In this document: one piece after another, positions 45,430-64,000 of the stretch
How positions within the stretch are numbered: position 1 is the stretch's first letter
Layout: each line of letters opens with the position of its first letter
Origin: Desulfatiglandales bacterium
Lineage (GTDB): Bacteria; Desulfobacterota; DSM-4660; Desulfatiglandales; Desulfatiglandaceae
Reading direction: 5' to 3'
Assembly: GCA_963662465.1 (NCBI GenBank)
Contig: OY759599.1
Span: 6,528,001 to 6,592,000 of the forward strand
Length of the DNA stretch: 64,000 bases
Made by a program: the position numbers and the translations under genes
Notes under the pieces: generated by a model
Told to the model about the DNA's origin: nothing
The model's database searches: none
Seen by the model: the letters and a program-made list of their open reading frames with translations, nothing else

Positions 45430-45714
45430 ATGAGGGCTTTTTCTCAGGTAGAAAAAATATTCGAAAAATATGCCGTGTCTGCTGAAGATTTTATTCGTTC
45501 GAGTGTCATTACAAATCTTAGGGAAAAACAACGATTGCTTCAAATGGAACGTTTTGAAATTCTGGCCAGATACCAGGCTTCAGATGCAGAAGAATTAAAC
45601 CATAAGATCGCAGAAGGCATTGCGCCGGAACATCCTGGCTGGGAAGATTTAATTGAAGTTAAAAATATTGAGCAAAACATTAACGAGATAGAAAGTGATA
45701 TCAAAATATTATAA
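45430..45714 (+). CDS. Putative antitoxin partner of the DUF6516 protein
   Basis: GGAGG RBS; small helical acidic protein with EHPGWEDLIE, overlapping the next ORF. Confidence 0.55.
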   Translation: MRAFSQVEKIFEKYAVSAEDFIRSSVITNLREKQRLLQMERFEILARYQASDAEELNHKIAEGIAPEHPGWEDLIEVKNIEQNINEIESDIKIL

Positions 45715-46084
45715 ACGAATAAAAAGAAATGTTGAGCGTAAGTTTTCTGATATTTTGAAGTCTGCCGAATTAATTCAGGGAACAACTGGTCGAATTCGTA
45801 AGCTGCGCCTTTATTTAATTGACAATACTTTTGTAGATATCTGGTATTCACCTGATGGCAGCTATTCATATCACTGGGAGCAACGAAATATCAGAGATGC
45901 TATCTACCGTCATGACAACGCTCCTCATAAAAAATGGCGAAATATCTCAACCTTTCCCAAACATTGTCATGATGGCAACCAGCTAAATGTTGCTGAAAGT
46001 TTTCTGTCAAATGATCCTGAAAGTGCAGTTGAAGAATTTCTTCTACTTGTCAGAAAACAAATGATTGCCTGTATAAGCAGATAG
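45695..46084 (+). CDS. DUF6516 family putative toxin
   Basis: YSYHW...RHDNAPH...TFPKHCH motif. Confidence 0.7.
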   Translation: MISKYYKRIKRNVERKFSDILKSAELIQGTTGRIRKLRLYLIDNTFVDIWYSPDGSYSYHWEQRNIRDAIYRHDNAPHKKWRNISTFPKHCHDGNQLNVAESFLSNDPESAVEEFLLLVRKQMIACISR

Positions 46085-48107: not shown

Positions 48108-49043
48108 ATGCCATCCATCGATTTTGACCTGCGCCAGCTTGAAGTTTTTCTGAAGGTGGTCGATCTGAAAAGCTTTTCGAAGGCCGCTAAGGCTGTTTTT
48201 CTGGCGCAGGCCTCGGTCAGTGAAAGAATCTCCACCCTTGAAACCATGGTGGGCGTTCGGCTCCTGGATCGGCTTGGGAGGCAGGTTTCGCCCACAAAGG
48301 CGGGGGAACTGCTCTACAAGCATGCGGTCCTGCTTCTGGATATGAAAAAAACAGCATGTCTTGAAATGCAGGAGTTCATGGGAATCAAACGGGGCGACAT
48401 CCACCTGGGCGGCAGCACCATTCCCGGCGAATATATTCTTCCAAAAGTTCTGGGGCTTTTCTGCCGGGAATACCCCCTGGTTTCGATTCAGCTCTCCGTG
48501 GCGGATTCGGTGAGTATTGAAACCGGGGTTTTGGGTGGTTCACTTGAGCTTGGCGTTATTGGAAGCAAAACCGTGCAAAAGGCCCTGATTTGTCATGAAC
48601 TATGGGCGGATGAATTGGTATTGGCCATCCCCGCCAAACACCGATGGGCTGACCTGAAAACAATATCAGTGGAGACGCTTTTTGAAGAACCCTTTATCTT
48701 TCGGGAACGGGGATCAGGGACCTTTAAAATTTTCGATAAATATCTGAGGGCCGCGGGAACAAGGGGATTGATTGACCTTAAAGCGGTCGCCCGTTTTGGA
48801 ACATCCACAGCGGTCAAAGAGGGCATCAAGGCGGGCCTTGGGATTTCCATCCTTTCTTCACGGGCACTGGAAACCGAGCTGACGTGGGGTGTACTTAAAA
48901 CGTTGAAATTGGAAAACCTCACCATGCGCCGCAGCTTTTATTTAATTCGGGACAAAAGACGGGTCTCCTCACCCCTTTGCAGCGCCCTGTGCGATTTTCT
49001 GATGAACACATCAAAGGAGTCTAAATATGAAGAAAAGGGCTGA
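48108..49043 (+). CDS. LysR family regulator (selenium metabolism-associated subfamily-like)
   Basis: LysR HTH (SFSKAA...LAQASVS), GSTIPGEYILP and RERGSGT. Confidence 0.8.
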   Translation: MPSIDFDLRQLEVFLKVVDLKSFSKAAKAVFLAQASVSERISTLETMVGVRLLDRLGRQVSPTKAGELLYKHAVLLLDMKKTACLEMQEFMGIKRGDIHLGGSTIPGEYILPKVLGLFCREYPLVSIQLSVADSVSIETGVLGGSLELGVIGSKTVQKALICHELWADELVLAIPAKHRWADLKTISVETLFEEPFIFRERGSGTFKIFDKYLRAAGTRGLIDLKAVARFGTSTAVKEGIKAGLGISILSSRALETELTWGVLKTLKLENLTMRRSFYLIRDKRRVSSPLCSALCDFLMNTSKESKYEEKG

Positions 49044-49251
49044 TTGGATCGATTACAGGGGCGATTGCTGACGTGCATACCAGGACGTAGCTCTATGTCT
49101 TAGGATATTGCCCAGCGGGGAATCCTTTGGATTCATCCTTGAGCGGGAAAAGCTTGAAAAAATACAAAAAGTAATCCAACACAATGAGGGGAAAGTGGTC
49201 TCTCAGGCGTTTGAAAACGATGCTGTTCGGATGCGGGTCGAGAAAATTTAA
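49027..49251 (+). CDS. Candidate TusA/SirA-like selenoprotein (Cys-Sec, UGA at 49069-49071)
   Basis: AAGGAG RBS; MKKRADWIDYRGDC-UGA-RAYQDVALCLRILPSGESFGFIL...RMRVEKI, 74 aa with readthrough; SECIS-like hairpin after the UGA. Confidence 0.7.
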
Positions 49252-49312
49252 TATGTATTGTCATTTAAGAACGGAAAAAGGGGTATCCATCATTGTTGGT
49301 CTCTGCCTCGTC

Positions 49313-49461
49313 TTGAACACGATTCACAGGATTTAACACGATGAACAGGATTAGAATACGGCGTCCGGACAAGTTCTTTCAGCCCCTTTACACCATTTTG
49401 TTGGTGTTTTATCGGTCAATGGTAATCCTGTCCATCATTTAATCTTTTAAATCGTGTTCAA
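49313..49461. repeat. Intergenic inverted repeat element
   Basis: TTGAACACGATT (49313-49324) / AATCGTGTTCAA (49450-49461), with internal ACAGGATT / AATCCTGT units. Confidence 0.6.
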
Positions 49462-49691
49462 ACATTTTCCGGCATCCCATTGTGTATTTCCTTTCCTATA
49501 TGGTACTTGATGTCGAAGGTTCATGATAAAATCCACCTTTTTGTGGGTGAAGTCGTGGTTCTGTTTGCGTTCTTTTTGTCTTGCAACGGTCTCTCACAAT
49601 GGCCTCATCTTGATGCACGCAGAGCGTGGGAACAACCGCTTTTGTAAATTGCACCGCCTTACGTCCATGATAAACGCCGGAAACACCATTT

Positions 49692-49713
49692 GGGGCGAAA
49701 GATTTTTCGCCCC
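49692..49713. repeat. REP-like palindrome
   Basis: GGGGCGAAA-GATT-TTTCGCCCC. A fragment of the other REP type (CACGCAGAGCGTGGGAAC) lies at about 49616-49633. Confidence 0.55.
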
Positions 49714-50353
49714 TGCAGTTCCAGCCGGCGTTCCAGCAAACGACCACAGGGAAATATGCCTGCAGCGTGAATAAAAAATCAAAATTCAAACAAATGAGAA
49801 ACTGTCCCGCCTTACGTCGATAGCCGTGTTTTTCAATTTTCCGTTTCTATAAAAAATTTTCTTCATTTCCTGGTGAAATCCTGGGAATTTGGTCTTCGAA
49901 AGCGAAATCTGTGAGTTCAAGGCTGGCATATGTAACCTTGCGTTTGATATTTCTAAATTTGTCGCTTTACAAGTGGTTGAAAACCAGTTTAGATCGATAA
50001 AGTGACGCGCGAGACTTATGCACGAATCATTGACCTGAGACGGGATAAGCGAAAACCGAATTGACCACAATATGTTGTGGTGGTAAAATCTTATGGTTTA
50101 GGTCCAGGAACGTGAAGGCAATTTCAGATATGTAAGGGAATATCAACACTTCAGAAACACTGTTTTTTTGGGTATATTCTCAATTTATGTCAGATTTACC
50201 CAATCCTACCGGTTTGATGATATCACACATTTCCATACCACCCTTATTTTCGAATTCCTTCCTAAAGTTTTTTTCTGAACTGCCGATTAATGATTCATGT
50301 ATATCAAAATTCATATTTATTTTCTTTGTTCTAAAATTGTAGGGAGCTGGACC

Positions 50354-52459
50354 ATGAGAGTAAACTTGATATTATGTGTCATGCTGGCAATACTAATGCT
50401 AGCAGGTTGCGGAAGTGAGAATTCCACTCAAAACAATCAGAATTCAGAAGAGACAACAACACTTGTAACGGAAGCAATGCTGGCTCAAGACGATTCACTT
50501 CATATCAATGAATCCCACTACGTAATGCTGACAATCGAACCAGAACAGAGTATGGTTGACGAAACGGATCTTTCTGGCGCAGGCATAGACTGTTATGACT
50601 TTACGGTGACGCAAGAGATAATAACAACGCTGCATATTACAAGCCCAAACGGAAAGTTCACCAACGCACTTTATGAAGAGGGCCGCTCAGATGCCCTGGT
50701 TGAAGCTTCTGAAGGGATAGAGTCCGTTACCGTCACACTGGTCCCGAATAAGACCTATAAACATTGCATTAAAAACAACAGCACTGACACACAGTCTTTG
50801 ACAAGTTTTTTTGAGTTGGCATCAAGTTCATCGACATCCCCAATGTCAAGTTCACTAGCATCAAATGATACGCAAGATCAACCCAGGCTAACTGCCACAA
50901 ATTCAATCGACTGTTCAAAACAGCATAACCTCAATTATGCCGGGCAAAATTATACAGGACATAATTTTGCCAATTTTGAAATAAAGCATTGTAGCTTCAA
51001 CAATACCATATTGGATGATGCAAGCTTTATGAATACTTCGCTTGAATATAATGACTTTACAGGTGCGTCTTTTGTGGGAGCTGATTTTACGAATTGGAAT
51101 ATTAACGACAATGTGTTCAAAAAGAACAATTTTTCAGGAGCTAAAAACTATAATCAGGGCTATTATTGTCAAGCTGATTCTCCCATTGATAAGTGTAATT
51201 CGACGGTATTCACAATTCAAAATCTTACGGATCTTATAGAGAAAAAAGAATGCCCTGCAGACTACCCTTCATGTAACTTCTCAGGAGCATACATTAACAA
51301 TAAAAATTTTAATTATGCTGATTTAAAAACAATCAACCTATCTTTTGCTATTATTAAAAATTCAACTTTTAGAAGTTCAGATTTAAGCACAGCTAACTTT
51401 TGGGGTGCTACAATTAAAAATGACAACGATTCAGGTGATTCTTTTAAAGGCGCAAATTTGAGCCATGCAAAGTTGAATAATGCTACAATTTCAAATATTG
51501 ATATGTCAGGAGCTGATATGAGTTTTGCAGATTTAACCGGTATTAAATTTGAAAACACATGGTTAAGCGGTGTTTTGTATAATGATGGAACGTATTGTGA
51601 AAATGGTTCAAACGATACCTGTAAACCAGCAGATTATTCAGCTCAAGAAGTTCAGCACCTTTTGTCATATAAACAGTGTCCACCTTCCAATGCAGGATGT
51701 CGCTTTCCCTTACTATTTATCATCGATAAAGATTTAAGTGGCATTGATTTCAGTAACGCAGATTTAAGAGGGAGTTGGTTTGAAAATGTAGATTTTACTA
51801 ACATGAATTATATGGGTGCAATGATAGAAAATGTCGGTTGGGGAGCTGATTGCATCTTTAACGGAGCAACAGACTATCATGGAAAATATTGTATGGCAAA
51901 TTCAATAGGGGGTTGTCACCCTGCTTCTTATACAGCAGCAGCTGTTCAAGAGTTAATAAGCACTCAGTCTGCTAAAGCAGGGTCCGATTTTACCGGTGTT
52001 TATTTGTCGGGAGAAAAATTTTGGAAGGGTGTTTTCGATAATGTCGTGTTCAATGAAGCAGACTTTTCCAATGCTACAATAGAAGATACTTCCATGAGAG
52101 ATTCTCAATTTGAGAATGCTACTTTTCATGGTGCTACCATCGCACTCGTTGATTTTTCATACTCGCAATTTCCAGGTGCCGATTTTTCTAATGCGATATT
52201 TGATAACCAAACCAGTTTTAAAAATGCTGTATTTGATAAAGTAAATTTTCAAAATGCAGATTTTATAAACGTACTTCTTGATGGCGCCGCTTTTAACGAG
52301 TCTGATTTCAGTTACAGTACTGTTAATGTGGCGGAACTCTTATCGAATTCGCAGATTTCCGGAAAGACAACCATGCCCAATGGCACAGTTTGTGATGGGC
52401 TGGCTGAATGTATCAAAGTATGCACGTCTGCAAATAACTACTGTGAATGGCATCCATAA
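50354..52459 (+). CDS. Pentapeptide-repeat lipoprotein with Cys-rich linkers
   Basis: Lipobox LAGC; many A(D/N)(F/L)xx repeats; AT-rich coding sequence. Confidence 0.85.
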   Translation: MRVNLILCVMLAILMLAGCGSENSTQNNQNSEETTTLVTEAMLAQDDSLHINESHYVMLTIEPEQSMVDETDLSGAGIDCYDFTVTQEIITTLHITSPNGKFTNALYEEGRSDALVEASEGIESVTVTLVPNKTYKHCIKNNSTDTQSLTSFFELASSSSTSPMSSSLASNDTQDQPRLTATNSIDCSKQHNLNYAGQNYTGHNFANFEIKHCSFNNTILDDASFMNTSLEYNDFTGASFVGADFTNWNINDNVFKKNNFSGAKNYNQGYYCQADSPIDKCNSTVFTIQNLTDLIEKKECPADYPSCNFSGAYINNKNFNYADLKTINLSFAIIKNSTFRSSDLSTANFWGATIKNDNDSGDSFKGANLSHAKLNNATISNIDMSGADMSFADLTGIKFENTWLSGVLYNDGTYCENGSNDTCKPADYSAQEVQHLLSYKQCPPSNAGCRFPLLFIIDKDLSGIDFSNADLRGSWFENVDFTNMNYMGAMIENVGWGADCIFNGATDYHGKYCMANSIGGCHPASYTAAAVQELISTQSAKAGSDFTGVYLSGEKFWKGVFDNVVFNEADFSNATIEDTSMRDSQFENATFHGATIALVDFSYSQFPGADFSNAIFDNQTSFKNAVFDKVNFQNADFINVLLDGAAFNESDFSYSTVNVAELLSNSQISGKTTMPNGTVCDGLAECIKVCTSANNYCEWHP

Positions 52460-52577
52460 AAATATTGTATTCGAGTTTGCAGTATCAATAATTCCCCTTG
52501 TGCGATGCACTGCATAATAATCTAAGTCGCAACATAGCTCTTGACAAAGGTGAAACAATTGATTCAGGCAAAACGCC

Positions 52578-52860
52578 TGTGATATCATCATGCCTGAACG
52601 CGTGCTGAGCGTTGACATATCTCCAACGTACCACAACCAAAGACGACGTTGTGATATGCGCCACATATTGCATCCGGTCCGTATTTGAAAACCTCTTTCG
52701 ACAAATGTTTGAGACCCCTACATCTTGTGGTCGAGCCCTTTTCAGGCTGTTAACCCAAAAGTGTAACTTACCTATATCATTGGTCTGTTGGACCCAGAGC
52801 TCAGAGTCTTCAGAAAAGTAACTGGCTGGCACGATTGTCTTTGGGGCAGCCTGGAGAAGA
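52578..52860 (+). repeat. Non-coding repeat, copy B (homologous to 63195-63520 and, inverted, to 50063-50227)
   Basis: 52617-52745 is near-identical to 63278-63406; both modules start with TGTGATATCATCA. Confidence 0.85.
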
Positions 52861-53056
52861 CTGGTGAATCAATCTTGGCATAATTCCTGAAACTACCTTT
52901 TTTGAAAAATTCACCGGATTTCAACGGGTAAATAGTGTATGATTGATCCGTCAGTGTCGCATAATCTTGGCGACGTTGGGGTAGAGGAGTATGCAAGGTA
53001 TGTTGCGGGGACTTTTGAGAAATTAGCTATGCATGATTCTTCAGGAGAAAGGCAAA

Positions 53057-54184
53057 ATGAAAAATAGAATGATTGTAGCCATAGGGGTAATATTATTTTC
53101 TATTGCAATCAACTCAAATTCTGAGATGAGAATACAACCCGAGGGAGTTACATCTCCCAACGATTCCGCTTCTCTCAGGTTGAGCGGAGACTTTGATAGC
53201 GCGTGTTTATCTCCTTGCGATAATCCCAACGCAGCGGTCGTTAGCGGGACAAACAGTTCCGGCTTGTATTCATGCGGCGTTTACGGTTCCGCCAGCGGTT
53301 ATAGCGCCAGCGGCGTTCACGGTACGGCTTCAGGTCTGAACGGCATAGGTGTTTACGGTAAGGCTTCGAATAGTGAAGATGCGAATAACATGGGTGGATA
53401 TTTTGTATCCCAAGGCACTTCCGGTGTTGGCGTTTACGGTTACGCTTCGAAGGAAGGAGATGCAACCAACTACGGTGGACATTTTGTATCCAAAGGCGAC
53501 TCGGGTTTCGGCATTTACGGTTCTACCGATGGAAACAGCGGCAGGGGAGTTTTCGGTATTGCGACCGGAGACAACGGCAGGGGCGTCGATGGCAATGCCA
53601 GCGGTGCTCACGGCAGGGGTGTTCAAGGTTATGGGGAGGAATGGGATTTTTATGCAAGAGGCCCAGGTGGCAATTATGGTCCTTTTACCGGTGCCCATGA
53701 AGTAAGATTTTCAGAGGATATGTTGGAAAATATAGTGCCGGGATTGATTGTCTCGGTAACCGGTAAAGCCCAAACCAGAAAGAATAAAAAAGGAGAGATA
53801 TCCTTATCTTCTACTCTGCCAACAGTGATACTATCCACCAGGGAAAGAGACAAGGCTGTATTTGGGGTCATTGTTTCCAAAGGTCCTCTTTCCGAAGACC
53901 ACTGGTACAAAGCTCAAAAAGGCGAACGGTTTGGGGTGGTAAATGCCCTAGGTGAAGGACGCGTCTGGGTAACTGACATCAACGGAGAAATCCAGGGAGG
54001 GGACTATATCACTACGTCGCCTGTTCCTGGATACGGTCAGGCTCAAAATGACGACTTCTTGCACTCCTACACGCTCGGCAAGGCCATAGAAACAATAGAC
54101 TGGGAGCAAGTCACGGAAACGGTCCAGCACGATGGGAAGACTTACAAGCGCTATCTCATTGCTGTGGTCTATACAAGCGGCTAA
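53057..54184 (+). CDS. Secreted Gly-rich repeat fibre-like protein with C-terminal chaperone (peptidase G2/IMC-like) domain
   Basis: Signal peptide, about 11 GV(Y/F/H)G-type repeats, FTGAH, VNALGEGRVWV...GDYITTS..PGYG. Confidence 0.65.
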   Translation: MKNRMIVAIGVILFSIAINSNSEMRIQPEGVTSPNDSASLRLSGDFDSACLSPCDNPNAAVVSGTNSSGLYSCGVYGSASGYSASGVHGTASGLNGIGVYGKASNSEDANNMGGYFVSQGTSGVGVYGYASKEGDATNYGGHFVSKGDSGFGIYGSTDGNSGRGVFGIATGDNGRGVDGNASGAHGRGVQGYGEEWDFYARGPGGNYGPFTGAHEVRFSEDMLENIVPGLIVSVTGKAQTRKNKKGEISLSSTLPTVILSTRERDKAVFGVIVSKGPLSEDHWYKAQKGERFGVVNALGEGRVWVTDINGEIQGGDYITTSPVPGYGQAQNDDFLHSYTLGKAIETIDWEQVTETVQHDGKTYKRYLIAVVYTSG

Positions 54185-54362
54185 TACAGCTTAGGCTTTC
54201 GGACTCGTGATAAAGATAGCCCAGGAAAGTTATGGTGAACCCATCACACAGGGTGTGATACAGCATCAACTTACCACAAAACCTGGTTTGCATACGAAGC
54301 AATCTCCGGAGTACAATTGTTGCTGATTCTTGTTAAAGTTCAGAGCACGGAAGGATAATGAT

Positions 54363-54853
54363 ATTTATGTTGCGAGTTTGGTTATGTTGTGTGTATTTAA
54401 TTCATCTAATTCATATTTAAAATTGAAATATCTATATAATTCTTATCATTCTGAGCTTGACTTTGCCTTACAAGCATGGTATATATTACACCAAGCTTGA
54501 TTTTATGGTTTTTCTCATATTATTATTATGATTGATTTTAGAAGTTGCAAGCTGTCTGTTATGTCCTACCCCACGTCGAATTACCTTCCTTATAGGAGGT
54601 TTGCGATATGAGACTTTATGAAAGATGTAGGCCCGTTCGCTTGATCCAGTAACCCTCCCCGGAGCAGTTTAACCCCTGGATCAGAACACAGAAGTATGTT
54701 TAAAGGATTATTATTATGTTGCGAGTTCCTTCAAACCGTTTCTGGAAATTGGAGGTAAACTATCGGAATCTTTACCAAATCATCATTTCTCAAGCCAGAT
54801 CCGAACTCCCTTATTATTTCGATAGGTTAGGCCAACACACAACATAACTCAAT
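54363..54853 (+). repeat. 491-bp non-coding direct repeat R1, copy 1
   Basis: Matches 58698-59188 with one substitution seen (GGCCCGTTCGC vs GGCCCGCTCGC). Confidence 0.95.
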
Positions 54854-55342
54854 CTATCACAGTATTGACGGCTGAAAAGCGGCACACAATATGTGGGTAT
54901 CCGGCCTCCGACACTCCGGGCGGATGTCTTGATAGTTTGCAGTTGAACATGCTAATGGTATGTTCGAATATAGCGGGATTCAAGGATCATGCAAGCAAGT
55001 ATGGAATGGGAATGTATAAAAAGTAAACAGACCACCGCCCCCGATATTTTTCACTCACAAGTGCGGGAATGGGATCAAGTCTTTGTATAGCTCATGGTCA
55101 GAGAAGAATATATGTTCTGGTATGACTTTTTGAGCCTTGAATCGTTTTGCGACTGAATGCTGGTTTGGTTGACCACGACATTAAATGCTCTGGCGATTTC
55201 GTCCAGGTTCTTTCTGCAGAGCCGCCCGCAAGATAAATCGCCATATTTCACGGCTCATTTACCACCTCTCGTAATGAATGGAATAGAAAGAAACAAGTAG
55301 GGTAATTATAGCCTTCAACAAAAGCATTCGGGTGTTCCTTTT

Positions 55343-57178
55343 ATGCAAGCGTTTGTGTTCACGCATTATTCAATCGACAATCGTAGACCCTATAGTAGCT
55401 CCCTCGTTACCCATATGTGCAAAAAGTATGGCAAACGCAGCAATTTTACTTCATTTTTTTTCATCATCCTCCTGATCATTTTCTCCGCCTGTGGTTCCAG
55501 GTCGGAGGCTTCCGCGGATAGTAGCGCGCTGGAAATAGGCCCCGCTTTTAAGGACGCGCAAATTCTTCCTCACGCAGAAGTTCTTAGAGACCCCACCGGA
55601 ACGCTGTCCTATCAAGACGTCTCCTCATATCCATTTTCCGGACAATTCGCGCCGCACAGGAGCGATACGATCAATCGGGGGCTGGATAGCTCGGCCTACT
55701 GGTTCCGGTTTCGGCTAAAAAAGGCCGAACAGGACGAAAAAGGCGGTCGGTTGATTTTGGCATTGCCCCAGCTTATTAATGAATTGGATCTGTTTGTGCC
55801 GATCCAGGGGCCACGGAAGGACGATTTACGATCCCTTCGTTCGGGGTTGAAGTATTATGGCGCCGGTGATGACCTGGGCTACAGATTCCCTGCGCTGGAG
55901 CTGCCTTCGGATCTGCGTTACGGTTCTGAACTCTATCTCAGGGCATGCGCAAAAAAAGTCAACTTCCCGATAGTGCTTTTTGATCAGTCTGTTTTTGACC
56001 GCTTCGTAAGGTTTGACTGCTTGTTTTTCGGGTTAATCACCGGAATTCTGGGGGCCATGCTACTCTATAATCTGGTGCTGGGAATATTCCTGAAAGACAA
56101 AGCTTACGCCATGTATTGCATCTATATCGCGAGCATGATCTGCTATTTGGCGGCGCTATCGGGCTGGGCTCTCTGGTTGGGGCTATCCCCCGAATTTCTC
56201 TCGAATACGGTTTTGATACTCTCCGGCGGGACAATGTTTTTTGGAATAGCCTTTTCCAGAATCTTCCTCCATACTTCCACCAAACATCGCTATATTGACC
56301 GCATTTTCTTGTTTTTTATGGGCGTAGCACTGGTCATTTCGGCATTGTGCGTCGCAGGATTTTTCGACATCGCAAACCAAATTGCTTTTTTCACAGCGCT
56401 GGTCTTTCCAGCGACCGCCATTGCATGTGCGGCTATTCGATGGCGTCAGGGGTATCGGTCCGCTCGGTATTATCTGATAGCCTGGACATTTTTATTTGCC
56501 TCCGTCATCCTTTTTGCAGCTTCTGGTCTCGGGTTGATCGAATATTCCTACCTCGTATCGCATGCCTCTCTGGGCATCGGGGCTGCCGCCGAATCTATTC
56601 TTCTTTCCATGGCCCTGGCAGACCGCGTGAGGGAGCTGAGGGAAGAGCGAAAGCGGTTGATTGAGAGCGAACGGCGCCTGACCGAACTTTCCATAACGGA
56701 TGCGTTGACCGGATTGTATAATAAACGATGGTTTTCCAGCAAAATGAAAAGTGAAATGGATCATGCCAGGCGCCTGGGCCAACCTTTGTCCCTGATTATT
56801 CTGGACGTGGATCATTTTAAGGGCTTCAACGATACGTACGGGCATTCCCAGGGAGATAAGGTCCTGGCTGAACTGGGCGGCGTTATCTCTTCCTCGGTGC
56901 GCCAGACGGATATCCCCTGCCGCTATGGCGGAGAGGAATTCTCAATCATTCTTCCGGATACGGACACTCAAAAAGCTTTAACCACCGCCGAACGATTGCG
57001 TGAAACTTTTGCCAGCGTCAGGTTTCGAATTGAACAGGAGAGAAATGTGTTCGCGACCATCAGTCTTGGCGTCACGAAGATGACCGAGGAGGATACCGAT
57101 GGTACATTTTTCGAGCGTGCCGACAAGGCGCTATATAGGGCAAAATCGCAAGGGCGGAATCAATCTGTTTTTTTGTAA
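55343..57178 (+). CDS. 7TMR-DISM diguanylate cyclase
   Basis: DISMED2 (AYWFRF) and 7TM domains, TDALTGLYN, DVDHFK, RYGGEEF, RxxD I-site (RQTD). Start uncertain. Confidence 0.9.
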   Translation: MQAFVFTHYSIDNRRPYSSSLVTHMCKKYGKRSNFTSFFFIILLIIFSACGSRSEASADSSALEIGPAFKDAQILPHAEVLRDPTGTLSYQDVSSYPFSGQFAPHRSDTINRGLDSSAYWFRFRLKKAEQDEKGGRLILALPQLINELDLFVPIQGPRKDDLRSLRSGLKYYGAGDDLGYRFPALELPSDLRYGSELYLRACAKKVNFPIVLFDQSVFDRFVRFDCLFFGLITGILGAMLLYNLVLGIFLKDKAYAMYCIYIASMICYLAALSGWALWLGLSPEFLSNTVLILSGGTMFFGIAFSRIFLHTSTKHRYIDRIFLFFMGVALVISALCVAGFFDIANQIAFFTALVFPATAIACAAIRWRQGYRSARYYLIAWTFLFASVILFAASGLGLIEYSYLVSHASLGIGAAAESILLSMALADRVRELREERKRLIESERRLTELSITDALTGLYNKRWFSSKMKSEMDHARRLGQPLSLIILDVDHFKGFNDTYGHSQGDKVLAELGGVISSSVRQTDIPCRYGGEEFSIILPDTDTQKALTTAERLRETFASVRFRIEQERNVFATISLGVTKMTEEDTDGTFFERADKALYRAKSQGRNQSVFL

Positions 57179-57295
57179 TTGCTTTTTTCTATATGTCGTC
57201 ACGGCCATGGGATGAGGTCAAGTTTTAGCTTGGCCCAAAAATCACAGAAGAATACATTTCCAACATATTTGGAGGATTGAATCCGTGGGAATAAT

Positions 57296-57389
57296 CTCAA
57301 TATATACCCAGAGCAACCGGCCCTGCGAGATGGGAGCAATCTCAGCGTTCGTTCAAGCCTTCTGATTTTATGATATCACAGCTTTTTTG
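57296..57389 (+). repeat. About 94-bp repeat R2, copy 1
   Basis: Colinear with 59183-59276 (CTCAATATATAC...ACCGGCCCTG...TTTTATGATATCACAGCTTTTTTG). Confidence 0.85.
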
Positions 57390-57414
57390 AGATTAGAGAC
57401 TTGCCTGTCCACTG

Positions 57415-58455
57415 CTAAGGGCATGTCACTTCATTAAACGCGTTGTCGTACAAGTAGACACATCTTAATGTGCCGCTAATGTTTTTTATGTTTCCTATAA
57501 TTTGGCTGGTGGCCAAGTCAGTGTCGCCGCCATTGTTATAGATGGCGGCGGAATCAGGATCCGTCACCCCTGCATCCACCAACGAGTGGCGCATTGTGAT
57601 ATCGCCGTCGCTGTTATCTATTCCGCGGGCGATCCCTGTGCCGCCGCCCGAAATATAACCGGTGAGTTCACTGTTCCATATTTCGGTTTTGTTGTGGGTA
57701 GCGGTTGTTCCTGCCGAATATAGCGCTGTGGATGATTTGCTGCCGGTGGAAGTAGCGCGTATTCTGGAGTTGTTCAATCGGATATTGCCGTTGGTATAGA
57801 TCCCATAGGATTTCGCCGTGTCACCACAGGTACTTTTTATTAGAATTCGATCGGCGGTAATACGGTATTGGCCGTTTCGAATATAAATGCCTGTGCAGTC
57901 GCCGCCAGTGGCGTGTGCGGCGTCGATCTCGACATCGGTCAGTAGAAACATACCCTCGGTATGGTGCAGAATACCCAGGGCGAATGCGTTATCCGGATCG
58001 GCCCAGGAAGCGTGACTCCCGACAGTCAATAAGCGCAGTTCGGCATTTATTGCTCCCACCACCGTGGCCGCGTTGATTCCGGTGGAGCCTCCGTCGGATT
58101 CTATCCAGGTTTGATTAATGCCCGAACCCTCGATATCCACGTAGGGCTTCATGGTGATCTTTTCATTATAACGCCCCGGGGCAACCTTTATCAGATAATG
58201 GTTATGGAAGTCATTATCGGTAATGCTGCTCAATGCCGCGTTGATGGTGGCGTAGTCTCCTCTGCCGCCCTTGGATACCCGAAGAATATTTTTCGACTGA
58301 GGATTGATTGGGACATTCGCGACAGTTAGACTCCCCCCCACGGCTAAATTTCCTGAGACTTTCATGTCGCCGCTGCCGGCGATGGCGTTTGCGGCGAGAG
58401 TTAATACGGCAAAGATGACTAAAGTGAAAAGAATAAGTTCTCTAGATTTTGACAT
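57415..58455 (-). CDS. Secreted pectinesterase-like / right-handed beta-helix protein
   Basis: Signal peptide; GDYATINAAL...IKVAPGRYNE...YVDIEGSG followed by GIY-type repeats. Confidence 0.7.
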   Translation of the reverse strand: MSKSRELILFTLVIFAVLTLAANAIAGSGDMKVSGNLAVGGSLTVANVPINPQSKNILRVSKGGRGDYATINAALSSITDNDFHNHYLIKVAPGRYNEKITMKPYVDIEGSGINQTWIESDGGSTGINAATVVGAINAELRLLTVGSHASWADPDNAFALGILHHTEGMFLLTDVEIDAAHATGGDCTGIYIRNGQYRITADRILIKSTCGDTAKSYGIYTNGNIRLNNSRIRATSTGSKSSTALYSAGTTATHNKTEIWNSELTGYISGGGTGIARGIDNSDGDITMRHSLVDAGVTDPDSAAIYNNGGDTDLATSQIIGNIKNISGTLRCVYLYDNAFNEVTCP

Positions 58456-58697
58456 TTGTCGGTGCTCCCCTATGGATTTTAAGATATCTTTTTTCAGGAC
58501 CGATTATAGGAAAAACATCATTTTGGGTCAAGCGATGACAAGATGAACTGGGAACCAAGTTAAAAGGGCTTGCAGGGAGGCTATGAGTTATCAGCGCATG
58601 GCTATTTGTTAAGGGCGAGGCGAAGGACTTTTGCCAAATCCAATAGTTTGAATATCTCCGACGTATTTGGAGAATTGGATGTTATGTGGTATTCTCA

Positions 58698-59276
58698 ATT
58701 TATGTTGCGAGTTTGGTTATGTTGTGTGTATTTAATTCATCTAATTCATATTTAAAATTGAAATATCTATATAATTCTTATCATTCTGAGCTTGACTTTG
58801 CCTTACAAGCATGGTATATATTACACCAAGCTTGATTTTATGGTTTTTCTCATATTATTATTATGATTGATTTTAGAAGTTGCAAGCTGTCTGTTATGTC
58901 CTACCCCACGTCGAATTACCTTCCTTATAGGAGGTTTGCGATATGAGACTTTATGAAAGATGTAGGCCCGCTCGCTTGATCCAGTAACCCTCCCCGGAGC
59001 AGTTTAACCCCTGGATCAGAACACAGAAGTATGTTTAAAGGATTATTATTATGTTGCGAGTTCCTTCAAACCGTTTCTGGAAATTGGAGGTAAACTATCG
59101 GAATCTTTACCAAATCATCATTTCTCAAGCCAGATCCGAACTCCCTTATTATTTCGATAGGTTAGGCCAACACACAACATAACTCAATATATACTCAGGG
59201 CGACCGGCCCTGAGAGATGGTATCAATCCCAGCGTTCGCTCGAACCCTCTGGTTTTATGATATCACAGCTTTTTTG
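58698..59276 (+). repeat. Contiguous R1+R2, copy 2
   Basis: 58698-59188 equals R1 and 59183-59276 equals R2; they share the CTCAAT hexamer. Confidence 0.9.
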
Positions 59277-59541
59277 GGTTTGACGATATTTTGGGTTTTG
59301 GCGGGAAAAATGAGTAAAGGTGAGACTGGAACATTTTTAAATCTGGGTCAATGCTCTTTCCAAAAATCGTAAGGCGTATCACAGCTTTTGCTGGTGTGAA
59401 TTCTTTGTGTATTGGACAGCTGATAGCTCTAAACTCTCATATTCTTTGTTGAAAACACTGTTTCGGTAGAATATTCTGTGTGACAGATGGAATGACTTAA
59501 TAGAACGTTTTTATAATTATCCAACTAGTGGAGGGTTGATT

Positions 59542-61119
59542 ATGGCTAAATATTTGCGGAATTTTCTTATTGTTGTTTTCGTGTCTTGCTTTGGTATTCT
59601 GACAATGTGGATTGACTCAGGAGTAAGCTCGGAAATCAATTCAAACAAGTCAGAAAATGACGCTTTTGCTAAGGTGGCTGTTAAAGGCGACCGAATGGAG
59701 TGGCATATAAAGGTACCATTTGAGAAATTGACGGTTATCGTATCAGGACCTGACGAATCTAAATATGTTCAGATTTTTGAGGGAGGAAGCCTTCCATTCT
59801 TCCAAATGCGGGATAACGACGGAAAACTTTTTCCTGATGGTGCCTGTAGTTACCAACTGCAAGCGGTAGCGGCTTCAAATAAAACGAGTCGCGGCGACAA
59901 TCTCCCCTCAGGCAGGGATTCAAATGAAAAGTTCACAATCGAGCAGCCTTCCCAAGAGATTAAGACACAATCGGGTGTCTTTGTTATCGAAGAAGGCCAG
60001 ATCATTTCAGATGAGGCTTCTGTTGAGATGGAAACAAACGTACAGACTGAACCCTCTTTTGAAACCCAGAATCCAGACTACGTCATTAATGATGATGTGA
60101 TTATCACCGGCAGCGAGTGCATTGGTTTTGACTGCGCTAATGGAGAATCCTTTGGGTATGCCACTCAAAAGTATAAAGAGAACAATCTTCAGATTTGGTT
60201 TGAAGATACCAGCATCGGTAGTTTTGCCACAAATGACTGGAAAATCTTAATAAATGATATCACAAGCGGTGGTGCCAGCTACTTTTCCATCTTTGACACG
60301 GATGCGGGTCGAAGGCCGTTCACCATAGAAGCAGGCGCACCAGCCAATTCACTTTACGTGGAAGATTACGGCAGAATCGGTCTGGGAACATCCATACCAT
60401 ACGTTGAGTTGCACATTGTGGACGGCGATTCGCCCACGATACGTCTGGATCAGGATGGTTCATCGGGTTGGGTTGCTCAAAGCTGGGATATGGCCGGCAA
60501 TGAGACCAATTTTTTTGTCAGGGATGTCACCAATGGTTCGAAACTGATTTTCAGAATTCAACCGAATACACCTTCTAGCACCCTTTGTCTTAGAAACACT
60601 GGAAATGGAAGGGTTGGAGTGGGAACCTGGTCTCCTGATGCCAGGTTACATGTTCAGGGAGCCCCCGGTTCGACCGATCCGCTGCTACTGGTGGAGAAAC
60701 TTTCAGGAGGTGAACAGAAAGACTTTTTTACGGTGAAGGACAACGGCGATGTGGAGCTTTTTAAAACCATCGGCGAAGGGTCGGACCGAAACCACAAAAA
60801 AAATATCGAACCAATCGATACGGCGATGGTATTAGCCGGGGTTGTCAACATGCCCATATCCGAGTGGAATTACAAAGTTGATGACGATTCGTTGCGACAT
60901 ATGGGACCCATGGCGCAGGATTTTCACGCGGCATTCGGTCTGGGTCAGGATGACAAGCATATTGCATCCCTTGATGCGTCCGGCGTATCACTAGCCGCTA
61001 TCCAGGAATTAAACAAACAGCTTGAATTGCAGAAGGAGATGATCCTGAAACAGAATGAAATTATTCAGACTTTAAAGGAACAGATCGAACATCTGGGGGA
61101 AAAGAGAACTCAGCCTTAG
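59542..61119 (+). CDS. Secreted tail-fibre-domain protein with peptidase S74 intramolecular chaperone
   Basis: Signal peptide; GRIGLGT / GRVGVGT..P...LHV repeats; SDRNHKKNI...HMGPMAQDF...AIQEL then coiled coil. Confidence 0.85.
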   Translation: MAKYLRNFLIVVFVSCFGILTMWIDSGVSSEINSNKSENDAFAKVAVKGDRMEWHIKVPFEKLTVIVSGPDESKYVQIFEGGSLPFFQMRDNDGKLFPDGACSYQLQAVAASNKTSRGDNLPSGRDSNEKFTIEQPSQEIKTQSGVFVIEEGQIISDEASVEMETNVQTEPSFETQNPDYVINDDVIITGSECIGFDCANGESFGYATQKYKENNLQIWFEDTSIGSFATNDWKILINDITSGGASYFSIFDTDAGRRPFTIEAGAPANSLYVEDYGRIGLGTSIPYVELHIVDGDSPTIRLDQDGSSGWVAQSWDMAGNETNFFVRDVTNGSKLIFRIQPNTPSSTLCLRNTGNGRVGVGTWSPDARLHVQGAPGSTDPLLLVEKLSGGEQKDFFTVKDNGDVELFKTIGEGSDRNHKKNIEPIDTAMVLAGVVNMPISEWNYKVDDDSLRHMGPMAQDFHAAFGLGQDDKHIASLDASGVSLAAIQELNKQLELQKEMILKQNEIIQTLKEQIEHLGEKRTQP

Positions 61120-61428
61120 GGTTTGTTTTTGCCGTTTAAAGAAGTAAAGGAACCAAAACCAGATTCCAAAAAATCATGGAAGCTGTGAGAAAAGAGGTCC
61201 ACATATTGTGGGGCACCAAATGGTAAGTCGGCACTTGACGGTGCAGTAACTTTGTACCGTACCATACAATTCTGCATCCTGAATTATGCTTGATGGAAAG
61301 ATAGCAAGGGCTTTTTGTTCCATTTTTGACTATCTTATTTGCATTGCAAGGGTTTGGATGGCCTCATGTAGAATCAATGGCTTTTCTTTCCCACAAAACA
61401 TACATTCCAAAAAATGGAGGTACGATCA

Positions 61429-62985
61429 ATGAAAAGGGAATTCATGGTCTTGGTTTTATTGGTGCCTTTGGTTGTTTTTACGGGAACAGGTTTTTCCAAA
61501 GATCCAGTAGACATCTTTACAATGGACACCTCCGTAAAGATTGAAACCGTTGCTGCCACCGTAACGGACCCTATTGAAGGGACTGAGGGAGGAATAACGC
61601 CCCAAGGCGATGAAGGGACAAAGAACACCATTTACGGACAATATGCGGGAGATAGCCTGACTTCTGACGCGGAGAAGAACACCCTTATTGGCGTGGCAGC
61701 TGGATCGGAACTCACTAACGGAGATTTCAACACCCTCGTTGGACACTATGCGGGATACGTTCTTACAACACAAACGAACAACACTTTCGTGGGAGGCACC
61801 GCAGGAAGAGGTGCAACCGGAAGCTCCAATACCTACATCGGCTACGCCGCAGGATATAAAGATTCCTATCCCTATGCGAATAGTGGTTCCGGAAATACCT
61901 TTGTGGGATGTGAGGCAGGCACGTTAAACGCAAGCGGTTACAACAACACTTTCGTGGGAAAGGATGCCGGAAAGGCAAACTTTACAGGAAAATGGAATAC
62001 TTTCATTGGCCGTGCAGCAGGGCAGGCCAATACCTCGGCAGATTCCAACACCTTTCTGGGAGACGGCGCTGGAATGGCCAACACCACTGGGCACCACAAT
62101 ACCTTCTTGGGGGACGCTGCCGGAATTACCAATCTCGACGGCCATTCCAATATTTATATTGGAGATGATGCAGGATACAAGAACAAATCAGGCTCTGACA
62201 ATATTTTTGTCGGTCGAAGCTCAGGTTATACAACTAACGAAGGTGAGAAGAACGTCTTTTTAGGTGGCAATGCCGGATACAATAACAGCAATGGCAGTTT
62301 TAACGTTTTCGTGGGATATGAAGCAGGCAAAGAAAACGATGGGGGACAAATTAATTCTTTCTTTGGAATAAAAGCGGGATACAAAACCATCGGAGGATCG
62401 TCAAATACCTTTGTCGGTGGCTATGCTGGATACAACAATACTGACGGTATGCGCAACGTTTTTATCGGAAGAGATGCAGGGCGTAATCAAAATGAATCAG
62501 ATAAACTTTTTATTGACAATTCAAGCGTTGCCACACCGCTTATCTGGGGAGATTTTAGCACCAATAACGTGGTGATCTACGGTGGCTTTAGGTCCATTGC
62601 CAGTTACACCTCTTCAGACAAACGGTGGAAGAAGAATATCCAACCGTTGGAATCATCCTTGGACAAAATAACCAGCCTTCAGGGCGTGAGCTATAAGTGG
62701 AAAACTGGCGAATATCCCGATATGGGAATGACGGAACGCAAACAAATCGGCCTGGTTGCACAGGACGTTGAAAAAGAGCTGCCTGAGTTGGTGTCCGAAG
62801 ACAAGAACGGATACAAAGCGGTATCTTACACCAAACTGACCGCTGTTCTCGTTGAAGCGGTAAAGGAATTAAAGGCTGAAAATCAGAGCCAGAAAAAACT
62901 TATAGAGGAGCAACGCAATCAATTTACGAAACAACAATCCGAAATTGAAGAATTACGTTCGATGTTAAAGGAATTGAAAAGCTGA
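61429..62985 (+). CDS. Secreted tail-fibre-domain protein with 14-residue NTFxGxxAG repeats and peptidase S74 chaperone
   Basis: Signal peptide; about 20 NTF(V/L/I)GxxAG-type repeats; SDKRWKKNI...IGLVAQDVE...VEAVKEL then coiled coil. Confidence 0.85.
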   Translation: MKREFMVLVLLVPLVVFTGTGFSKDPVDIFTMDTSVKIETVAATVTDPIEGTEGGITPQGDEGTKNTIYGQYAGDSLTSDAEKNTLIGVAAGSELTNGDFNTLVGHYAGYVLTTQTNNTFVGGTAGRGATGSSNTYIGYAAGYKDSYPYANSGSGNTFVGCEAGTLNASGYNNTFVGKDAGKANFTGKWNTFIGRAAGQANTSADSNTFLGDGAGMANTTGHHNTFLGDAAGITNLDGHSNIYIGDDAGYKNKSGSDNIFVGRSSGYTTNEGEKNVFLGGNAGYNNSNGSFNVFVGYEAGKENDGGQINSFFGIKAGYKTIGGSSNTFVGGYAGYNNTDGMRNVFIGRDAGRNQNESDKLFIDNSSVATPLIWGDFSTNNVVIYGGFRSIASYTSSDKRWKKNIQPLESSLDKITSLQGVSYKWKTGEYPDMGMTERKQIGLVAQDVEKELPELVSEDKNGYKAVSYTKLTAVLVEAVKELKAENQSQKKLIEEQRNQFTKQQSEIEELRSMLKELKS

Positions 62986-63194
62986 AGCTATTTAGTCAGA
63001 AGAGGAACCAATATGGGGAGGGACGATTACGGATTACACGGTCCTTTTGACGGCAGGATTGGCCTGTCGCCAATTAAGTAAAATCGTCAGGTGGCTTCTG
63101 GCACGGGGTCACCACCTCCCCACCAGTTTTGTTTATTGCAAAATGCTGTTCGGTCGGAATTGATATCCTGCACAATTTCTTGCAACCGAATGGT

Positions 63195-63520
63195 TGTGAT
63201 ATCATCACTGGGAGGGGGCGGTCTGACGGTTGAGAAATGCATGAAACTGGCCGTTTTTTGGGTTGCATAAGTTGGGTATATCTCCAACGTACCACAATCA
63301 AAGAGGACGTTGTGATATGAGCCACATATTGCATCCGGTCCGTATTTGAAAACCGCTTTCGACAAATGTTTGAGACCCCTACATCTTGTGGTCGAGCCCT
63401 TTTCAGATTGTTAATTCAAAAGTGAAGGTATCCTATATCATTCTTCTGTTGGGCTTGGAGCCCGGATGCGTGAAAAAAGCAGCCCCCTGGCACGATTTTT
63501 TTGCTTCAGCATGGAGAAGG
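63195..63520 (+). repeat. Non-coding repeat, copy C
   Basis: Homologous to 52578-52860, with about 40 extra bp that include an intact core site at 63260-63287. Confidence 0.85.
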
Positions 63521-63634
63521 ATGGCAATTCTAACCTTGAGTTTGAAAGCTTAACAGGCGGCTGAAAATCATCGCCGCCATATTTCCCTAAAAATGATCAA
63601 AAATCATCGAAATTCGCCCATTACTGTCTTGCCC

Positions 63635-64000
63635 CTACCCCAACATGTGGGGCTTGCCGTCATTGAACGTTAGACCGTTTTGTGTGAGTCGATACTTTTG
63701 AAGACGGCTTTTCGGTTTGTCCGGCAGTGTTATTTCCACAACTCCGGCGTCCATTGCCGGCAAAAGATATGCTTTGCTAAAATGCATTCTGTCCTTTAAC
63801 CCAACCCTCTTCATTATTTCGGTCCGGGTCATTTTGCTCTGCAACACGTTAAGGAGCTGTTTGATTTGCGGGGTGACTTGCGTGTCGTCCTTTTAATTCA
63901 AGGGTTCAGCAAAAGAAGAATGGAGAGGGAATTCGACTATAAAATAGGTCTGGTCCGGATCTGTGTGAAATATGGGTTCGGGAGATTCGTTTTTCCTGAT
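63635..64000 (-). pseudogene. 3' part of a RecG-C/Fic-type HTH ATP-binding protein gene with an in-frame stop
   Basis: Frame reads ..SPEPIFHTDPDQTYFIVEFP..AEPLN-TAA(63895-63893)-KDDTQVTPQIKQLL..PDKPKSRLQKYRLT. Confidence 0.6.

Follow-up and report, generated by a model that had tools for sequence, protein, structure and literature searches.

The window analysed here, a stretch of 64,000 nucleotides from a Desulfatiglandales bacterium (C1:6528001-6592000, C1 being the single contig of the 8.16-Mb genome), hosts a row of cassettes of unrelated genes, mostly for predicted exported proteins, bounded by two alternating classes of short sites, denominated A and B. The array has the architecture (A site - cargo - B site - linker)n. 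It is a real feature, likely a gene-shuffling system distinct from integrons, in which genes are swapped by a compact recombinase of the Xer type, the gene of which lies between such sites in arrays located elsewhere, and possibly a third cassette system. Added by this locus are the reading of the sites as direct repeats with two cores, breakpoints at both cores, and a RIT-type element proposed as a parasite of the A core.

Two classes of sites with fixed cores

A and B cores are both 7 bp long (TCTCAAT and CTCCAAC, respectively), are repeated in direct orientation and are framed by near-palindromic arms. On the cargo strand, A sites conform to GGGWATAT-TCTCAAT-ATATACCC and B sites to GGGTATAT-CTCCAAC-ATAT/GTAC, or to similar sequences. 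Sites are embedded in long flanks, in the order A-outer, core, A-inner, cargo, B-inner, core, B-outer. Profile searches carried out with the flanks of the window identified four dispersed families of 22-26 copies each (A-outer 23, A-inner 22, B-inner 24 and B-outer 26 matches genome-wide). The flanks fall into 27 genome clusters, 22 of which contain at least two of them.

The position of the cores was monitored by flank models from which the core had been omitted; only matches reaching the end of the model were kept, and counts include the seed. Of 17 A-outer matches, 9 have CTCAAT at an offset of 31-33 (6 of 23 matches having been dropped; chance 0.0009 per site), and two further ones have the variant core GTCAAG. 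CTCCAAC was found at a fixed offset in 18/22 B-inner matches (2/24 dropped; chance 0.0004). As a short word alone, the arm joined to CTCAAT is modestly enriched, with 11 matches versus a mean of 1.7 and a maximum of 7 for 89 other core permutations. The array is polarised, as the nearest long gene points to B in 24/24 instances, and away from A in 18/22. Linkers range from 30 bp (57265-57294 and 58663-58692) to about 4 kb. A-outer flanks carry a sigma-70-like promoter sequence, TTGACC-17-TAAAAT, which matches the consensus hexamers at 10/12 positions at 50061-50089, is directed into the cassette, and is kept within one mismatch in 13/22 copies. A palindromic CACAATATGTTGTG box is located at 50065-50082, between the -35 and -10 hexamers of this linker promoter; similar boxes are found in B-outer flanks and at 54889 and 61200. 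The box resembles an NrdR operator, and is a putative one.

The exact A pattern was detected in 4/10 congeneric genomes and in 2/30 others, with no control hits; the exact B pattern in 5/10 congeneric genomes and in 0/30 others, with two control hits. Many of these genomes are incomplete. The alternation of cargo and linker modules holds with exceptions. In one of these (C1:2379573-2379831) the variant core TGTCAAG/CTTGACA connects a B-inner flank with an A-outer flank in inverted orientation.

The first-pass annotation of the window had described seven dif/Xer-like sites sharing a 6-bp CTCAAT spacer. The seven 28-mers all lie exactly at the positions given for them, and five carry CTCAAT; they do not form one class, and a spacer of 7 bp is the best reading. 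Those at 54348, 54837, 58683 and 59172 mark where a gene-less, RIT-like element of 483 bp, described below, meets its surroundings; the first corresponds to the left junction of the element at TGATAT, in a truncated flank. The site at 63260, reported as reverse, reads on the + strand as arm GTTGGGTATAT, core CTCCAAC (63282-63288) and arm GTACCACAATC, and is thus a B site in direct repeat with the A sites. B sites at 52621-52627, 57258-57264 and 58656-58662, the last two degenerate, had escaped the count. B had also been tentatively treated as inverted, with a core of variable sequence. This reading was dropped because the alignment of 31 B sites places a fixed CTCCAAC on the cargo strand beside the variable stretch, and the supposed variable core is therefore an arm.

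Exchange of neighbours at the cores

The locus varies between relatives, and neighbours are swapped exactly at both cores. When cargo order is compared among relatives, as the first-pass annotation had suggested, the interval between lysR and metG, 21 kb long here, contains no cassette in four of them (G004, G005, G006 and G007), and a different 2.3-kb insert in G010. The cassette of cargo 1, which encodes a pentapeptide-repeat protein, is found in G010 at another locus. The two copies are alike up to 52627, the position at which the B core terminates; in G010 the arm to the left of A belongs to another subtype. In G004 a duplicated cassette features 4 differences in 1,910 aligned columns, from an A core to the next A core, and then 28 in 150. 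Similarly, the pair of cassettes at C1:1598162 and C1:6237017 within the genome terminates at the A core. Among 10 hand-picked pairs, identity in the 100 bp to the left and right changes from 0.92 to 0.36 and from 0.39 to 0.96 at B cores, and from 0.90 to 0.45 and from 0.28 to 0.86 at A cores. The similarity of flanks is uncorrelated across the core (r 0.05 and 0.08) and correlated within one side (r 0.17-0.41) in Mantel tests, which are low-powered and include duplicate rows.

This low power is one of the points that weigh against the movement of cassettes at the cores. Moreover, several of the 10 pairs lack a clean identity step, and recombination is deduced here from the comparison of sequences. 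Core words are touched by 6 of the 34 ends of long low-copy duplications found in or near arrays (about 1.2 expected; one of the six is probably due to chance), and missed by the remaining 28. Sorted by eye, the latter correspond to the ends of insertion sequences (IS), to internal breaks, or to alignments continuing through homologous flanks.

The off-core ends fit the view that sites are ordinary dispersed repeats, and that cassettes are moved by homologous recombination between flanks of 100-250 bp, which are 70-96% alike. Invariant 7-bp cores amid freely reassorted flanks and breakpoints exact to the base are not expected of RecA, and this is the least probable of the explanations considered. 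The contigs of four sequencing runs contain no core joint reading as a circle or as an empty site; as contigs lose rare forms, the result carries no evidential weight. One low-depth contig joint (57387-59283) is located off the cores.

A candidate recombinase in full-length linkers

The first-pass annotation had stated that no recombinase gene lies in the window, and this is correct. None was found among the 16 window open reading frames (ORFs) scanned, and of the 58 matches to the tyrosine recombinase domain PF00589 in the genome none falls inside the window. Three full-length linkers found elsewhere (C1:4498740-4500615, 3847013-3849515 and 3705576-3709512) each carry a HU-like gene and a divergent gene for a tyrosine recombinase of 280 amino acids, in copies 95-97% identical. 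Two fragments of the recombinase gene are also present, and 4/5 copies end 89-90 bp from a B-outer flank. The order A-flank, HU, recombinase is repeated in G010. In one linker, an IS200-family transposase gene (C1:3848256-3848765; L002:5257-5766) is found between recombinase and HU genes, just upstream of the former. IntI-like genes are located within 60 kb of flanks in 0/7 instances (measured distances 63-254 kb), XerC and XerD genes are not found within 38 kb of any flank, and among 23 other recombinase genes only three RIT genes lie at 3 kb or less from a flank.

The best family and structure matches of the protein are archaeal XerA recombinases (NF040815, 122 bits; PDB 4a8e, E 4e-18). The score is below all curated cut-offs (XerA 122/220, XerC 60/335, XerD 57/330 and XerS 25/267 bits), and above the cut-off for the catalytic domain PF00589. 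The residues that we take to be catalytic (R, K, H-x-x-R, H and Y) do not vary among 22 homologues. A search retrieved 4,047 matches at E <=0.001, a count that will include other recombinases; at least 120 of the matches listed share at least 63% identity. Among species genomes 569 recombinase stretches were confirmed, and homologues are mostly from records of Desulfobacterota or Deltaproteobacteria. The enzyme is widespread in Desulfobacterota, and the host is likely to be a sulfate reducer. Near-identical pairs at 78 homologous loci diverge about 120-180 bp ahead of the gene and 120-130 bp past its end; pairs from other genera delimit a unit of about 1.08 kb with differing neighbours. The 7-bp words at unit ends resemble A in 14/75 and B in 17/77 cases (1.2 and 1.4 expected, respectively), by core patterns drawn in part from these same loci. 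Flank ends are repeated, always in direct orientation, in 16 of the 52 homologous loci at least 10 kb long. Core pairs appear to differ by clade.

The reading frame is usually broken at a homopolymeric run close to the start of the gene (T9, T9 and T8 here, T9 in G010, A7-10 in most others). Of the 78 homologues, 47 are in the +1 frame and 11 in the -1 frame, 15 are in frame, 4 lack an ATG and 1 lies at an edge; the frame caller is crude (58/78 out of frame), and some calls are likely wrong at broken genes. As the frameshift is conserved, we infer that it reflects programmed slippage.

Strand exchange by tyrosine recombinases requires spacers that match, and symmetry of the arms is in keeping with a single protein. 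In the reading that we favour, and which has a somewhat better than even chance of being correct, the window hosts a cassette row with direct-repeat A and B sites, and the XerA-like recombinase of full-length linkers located elsewhere would recombine only sites with matching cores. Recombination of A with A would excise or insert a circle made of cargo and linker, recombination of B with B a circle made of linker and cargo, and one event of each type would swap a cargo or a linker alone. The window array, which features gene-less linkers only, would be served in trans. HU may bend the long flanks at TGATATCA-type motifs, the linker promoter would drive transcription of the next cargo, and slippage on the T8-9 run (A7-10 elsewhere) could keep the enzyme scarce.

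Further points against this reading concern the window and the enzyme. The window contains two degenerate B sites, a cargo that lacks an A site (cargo 2) and one in reverse orientation (cargo 4). None of the three full-length recombinase genes is in frame with its ATG, and the copies of this genome could be inactive. G010 is rich in sites, and yielded only two recombinase fragments. No flank repeat was found in 36/52 long homologous loci, and most of these loci fail the core patterns.

Some of these points are accounted for by selfish accretion, an alternative which shares enzyme and chemistry with the cassette reading. Recombinase units of an IS-like nature (in most genera about 1.1 kb long), their derivatives devoid of genes and non-autonomous elements carrying cargo would have piled up at each other's ends, with no selected shuffling, leaving mostly a relic. 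The units of about 1.08 kb with differing neighbours, the lack of arrays in 36/52 long loci, the many IS, RIT and intron insertions in arrays and the degenerate sites of the window are all in keeping with it. An ordered platform is indicated instead by strict polarity (24/24 and 18/22), by the conserved promoter facing the cargo (13/22), and by the bias towards exported-type cargo, as 15/22 genes adjoining B are of this type versus 89/600 background ORFs, according to a crude hydrophobicity rule. We regard selfish accretion as unlikely.

The notion of a tyrosine-recombinase cassette array for secreted proteins, put forward in the first-pass annotation, is supported by breakpoints at the cores, by the variation of the locus between relatives and by the presence of a candidate recombinase in a like architecture elsewhere. 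Its attribution to dif and XerCD is not, because the array is distant from the terminus, the XerC arm is poorly matched, arms are near-symmetric, spacers are of two 7-bp kinds and the dif-like arms belong to the RIT-like element. Cumulative GC skew has its maximum at 1.786 Mb and its minimum at 5.77 Mb, which puts about 3.4 Mb between array and terminus. A dif-like search of the genome retrieved nothing close to the enterobacterial dif and, by pattern match, one plausible host dif (C1:1823263-1823290), 37 kb from the skew maximum. Compared to this candidate, array sites match 2-6/11 positions of the XerC arm and 4-8/11 of the XerD arm. Recombination by host XerC/XerD, as in the dif modules of Acinetobacter, would be in line with the presence in the genome of both xerD (above cut-off) and a xerC-like gene (320/335 bits), with the alternation of modules, reminiscent of C and D modules, with two sites matching the XerD arm at 8/11, and with the occurrence in G010 of sites and recombinase fragments only. 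Four sites match the XerD arm at just 4-6/11, cores are 7 bp long, arms are symmetric and sites are direct rather than inverted, all of which makes this explanation highly improbable.

Known gene-cassette designs are two, integrons and the dif modules of Acinetobacter. Acinetobacter pdif sites are XerC/XerD sites of the 11-6-11 type, inverted around each module, carried by plasmids and served by host enzymes; spacer identity is reported to decide the partners, and single modules are movable in two successive events (PMC13141974, available text). The alternation of two module types and the logic of spacer matching are alike in the array described here. The array differs in featuring direct repeats, a chromosomal location, near-symmetric sites, a pair of fixed cores of 7 bp each, accessory flanks of considerable length and a candidate recombinase of its own. 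Arms, spacer length and orientation set it apart from dif modules.

Integrons, as presented in the accessible part of PMC8618304, similarly feature tandem polarised one-gene cassettes, a tyrosine recombinase and an upstream promoter directed toward the cassette; CALINs, according to the same text, are arrays remote from their recombinase. The candidate recombinase scores 43 bits on TIGR02249, the cut-off of which is 265. In strand folding, done without an attC covariance model, five junction strands gave z values of -0.42, -1.97, -0.47, +0.04 and -0.25, and none pairs across the junction as attC does. In addition, two classes of 7-bp-core sites alternate here, and the recombinase is found inside a repeated linker. 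Polarised cassettes and a promoter-like upstream site are present, and the array is set apart from integrons and CALINs by IntI and attC. The genome does host integron integrases, with five matches above the TIGR02249 cut-off (C1:6792755, 4425408, 3287696, 4981289 and 6133965) in addition to fragments. Text resembling attC, judged by eye, follows some recombinase units in loci L073 and L109.

Among single-subunit simple tyrosine recombinases (PDB 4a8e and 5hxy), archaeal XerA is the best match of the linker enzyme; arms that are symmetric around an asymmetric spacer are in keeping with the use of one protein. The linker enzyme differs from XerA in being below cut-off (220), mobile, frameshifted and present in many copies per genome. 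Cassette exchange between heterospecific sites of the Cre/lox type is a further term of comparison; to our knowledge, two-spacer cassette exchange exists solely as an engineered method. In tandem accretion, integrative or cis-mobilisable units lacking a recombinase are stacked at shared att cores and moved by the enzyme of a neighbour or by a distant one. Those units share one core; the array has two, both fixed and in alternation, and its candidate enzyme is the product of a single small gene. None of the simple-recombinase subgroups described in the available part of PMC8138268 fits the candidate. SEs (strand-biased circularising elements) are reported to have a core of four genes, intA-CDS2-intB-CDS4, and to copy a flank of 6 bp (PMC10214605, in part); compared to what is given there, linkers hold one recombinase and HU, and both cores are fixed. 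No description of the recombinase family or of the A/B site pair was found in a literature search outside of which most subscription journals fall.

A wider interpretation, somewhat short of an even chance, is that the array exemplifies a natural form of recombinase-mediated cassette exchange. One frameshift-throttled recombinase and two incompatible 7-bp spacers would allow genes for surface and secreted proteins, and the intervening linkers with their promoter or recombinase, to be swapped independently across dozens of chromosomal arrays. This would be a third kind of cassette system beside integrons and dif modules, Desulfobacterota-wide, and old enough to have its own RIT parasite. If true, the variation of exported proteins in large-genome sulfate reducers would be explained by a third design, equipped with a compact recombinase. 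The system is reducible to one gene of 280 codons for amino acids and two 29-bp sites, and hence is directly testable; clade-specific core pairs would supply orthogonal sets of recombinases and sites.

RIT-type elements, cargo genes and surroundings of the array

A 491-bp repeat is found at 54363-54853 and 58698-59188. The corresponding 483-bp element has five copies in the genome, with 0-4 differences over 483 positions. The contig depth of this miniature is 156-175, versus 33-46 for single-copy contigs (short reads of a single sample sequenced in two runs; the assembly itself may derive from this sample). The four- to fivefold excess speaks against an assembly artefact, and the duplications noted in the first-pass annotation are real. 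CTCAAT flanks 4/5 copies on both sides; the copy at 54365 has TGATAT on the left. This left junction sits within the TGATATCA motif of a flank which elsewhere runs on to a B site, so that B site, linker and A arm are missing at 54364, likely because they were deleted by the miniature. A G005 homologue, 80% identical, has the variant A core GTCAAG on both sides. In the interior of the element (54560-54690 and 58895-59025) promoter-like hexamers, a strong ribosome-binding site and an ORF of 14 codons precede a stem. The G005 homologue retains both ORF and stem, with one stem pair changed on both sides. No Rfam match was found, and the hairpin is not significant as DNA (z -1.15).

The ends of two RIT-type elements (C1:280535-288818 and 2853858-2861912) are built like those of the miniature, and both elements have CTCAAT on either side. 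In the former, a trio of neighbouring tyrosine recombinase genes (C1:280723-287139) is enclosed by short inverted repeats, the middle gene being interrupted by a second trio; trios nested in the middle gene of another trio were observed at C1:282098-285449 (L005) and at C1:7044470-7052670. The three adjacent genes, the short terminal inverted repeats and the multiple sites are as in RIT elements, to the extent covered by PMC3414803 and PMC8138268; features of RIT elements and SEs were drawn from parts of PMC3414803, PMC5737581 and PMC10214605. The parent-type element has three extra ORFs. Only the first 25-39 bp of the miniature align to the elements compared. The likeness to RIT elements accounts for the parasite only, and not for the array, and the miniature shares just its ends with the RIT-type element.

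It is proposed that RIT-type element and miniature are parasites which integrate at the CTCAAT of A sites. Targeting of the recombination core of another system has a parallel in IS1202-family elements, which target pdif sites (PMC10132070, as far as available). Exact junctions at a 6-bp core would provide a clean substrate for the study of the RIT mechanism. Alternatively, the RIT trio itself could be the enzyme, A sites being its target and cassettes being moved between CTCAAT cores. CTCAAT is indeed present on both sides of two RIT-type elements and of 4/5 miniatures, as is GTCAAG in G005, and the three RIT genes are the only other recombinase genes close to a flank; that RIT recombinases also join DNA at CTCAAT counts against assigning the cores to the linker enzyme. 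RIT arms (TTATGTTG/CAACATAA, doubled at 17 bp), which are the most dif-like arms of the window, are unlike cassette arms, the B core is found at no RIT end compared, and linkers and the recombinase inside them would be left unexplained. The explanation is improbable.

In the window all features are on the + strand, save for cargo 4. The A-outer flank (50035-50177) leads into A site 1 (50167-50195, core 50178-50184), where identity with other copies steps at the core. Cargo 1 (50297-52459; PF00805, 37.5% GC) encodes the pentapeptide-repeat protein, which has a lipoprotein-like N-terminus, and is followed by B site 1 (52610-52638) and by a gene-less B-outer flank (52628-52841), 85% identical to 63289-63502. 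Cargo 2 (53033-54184) encodes a glycine-rich repeat protein of 383 amino acids with a hydrophobic N-terminus and no Pfam match, and no A site was found ahead of it. Next come a truncated B-inner flank (54231-54364), which ends at TGATAT (54359-54364) and was aligned to the intact flank C1:4789250-4789500, the first miniature with its core CTCAAT (54365-54853, core 54848-54853), and a third type of inner flank (54854-54989). The latter precedes cargo 3 (55343-57178), a 7TMR-DISM sensor/GGDEF protein with a 96% partial paralogue at C1:2107498.

The joint at 57247-57312 includes the degenerate B core TTCCAAC (57258-57264), a 30-bp minimal linker and the A core TCTCAAT (57295-57301), and is continued by an A-inner flank (57302-57391), the end of which is TGATATCACA. 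Cargo 4 (57415-58455, - strand), in the minority orientation, is pectinesterase-like below the Pfam cut-off, with a hydrophobic N-terminus. A second joint (58645-58699) has the degenerate B core CTCCGAC (58656-58662), a 30-bp linker and the A core TCTCAAT (58693-58699); here the second miniature (58700-59188) is inserted at the A core, with CTCAAT on each side, ahead of an A-inner flank (59189-59278). Cargo 5 (59536-61119) and cargo 6 (61414-62985) are both of the exported type, with a C-terminal Peptidase_S74 chaperone domain. The row ends with a B-inner flank (63173-63281) including the TGATATCA motif, a second arm-like GCATAA and the arm GTTGGGTATAT, with the B site at 63271-63299, and with a B-outer flank (63289-63502), gene-less here.

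Cargo genes of other clusters encode S74, NHL, Ig-like, PKD/M23, CHAP, caspase-like, FG-GAP, FecR and sensor domains; many cargo ORFs outside the window have no Pfam match (60 of the 99 listed ORFs were scanned). One cargo gene (C1:3849842-3851209; L002:6843-8210) features the beta-lactamase-family domain PF00144. At C1:2112482-2126918 (L138) a 14-kb BREX-like defence cluster, including BrxL and a methyltransferase, is found between two direct A-type sites, which suggests that entire defence systems can serve as cargo.

No tRNA was found in the window, and an Rfam scan of 49000-64000 gave nothing above E 0.6. Upstream of the array lie a TumE-type toxin-antitoxin-like pair (45430-46084) and several short repeats of high copy number (49250-49800; 111 BLAST hits); one of these is also arranged in tandem, with a period of about 200 bp, at C1:1480060-1483048. 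A ParE/RelE-family gene (L052:2748-3032) is found just past the array, and the insert continues beyond it with a molybdopterin oxidoreductase-like operon reaching metG.

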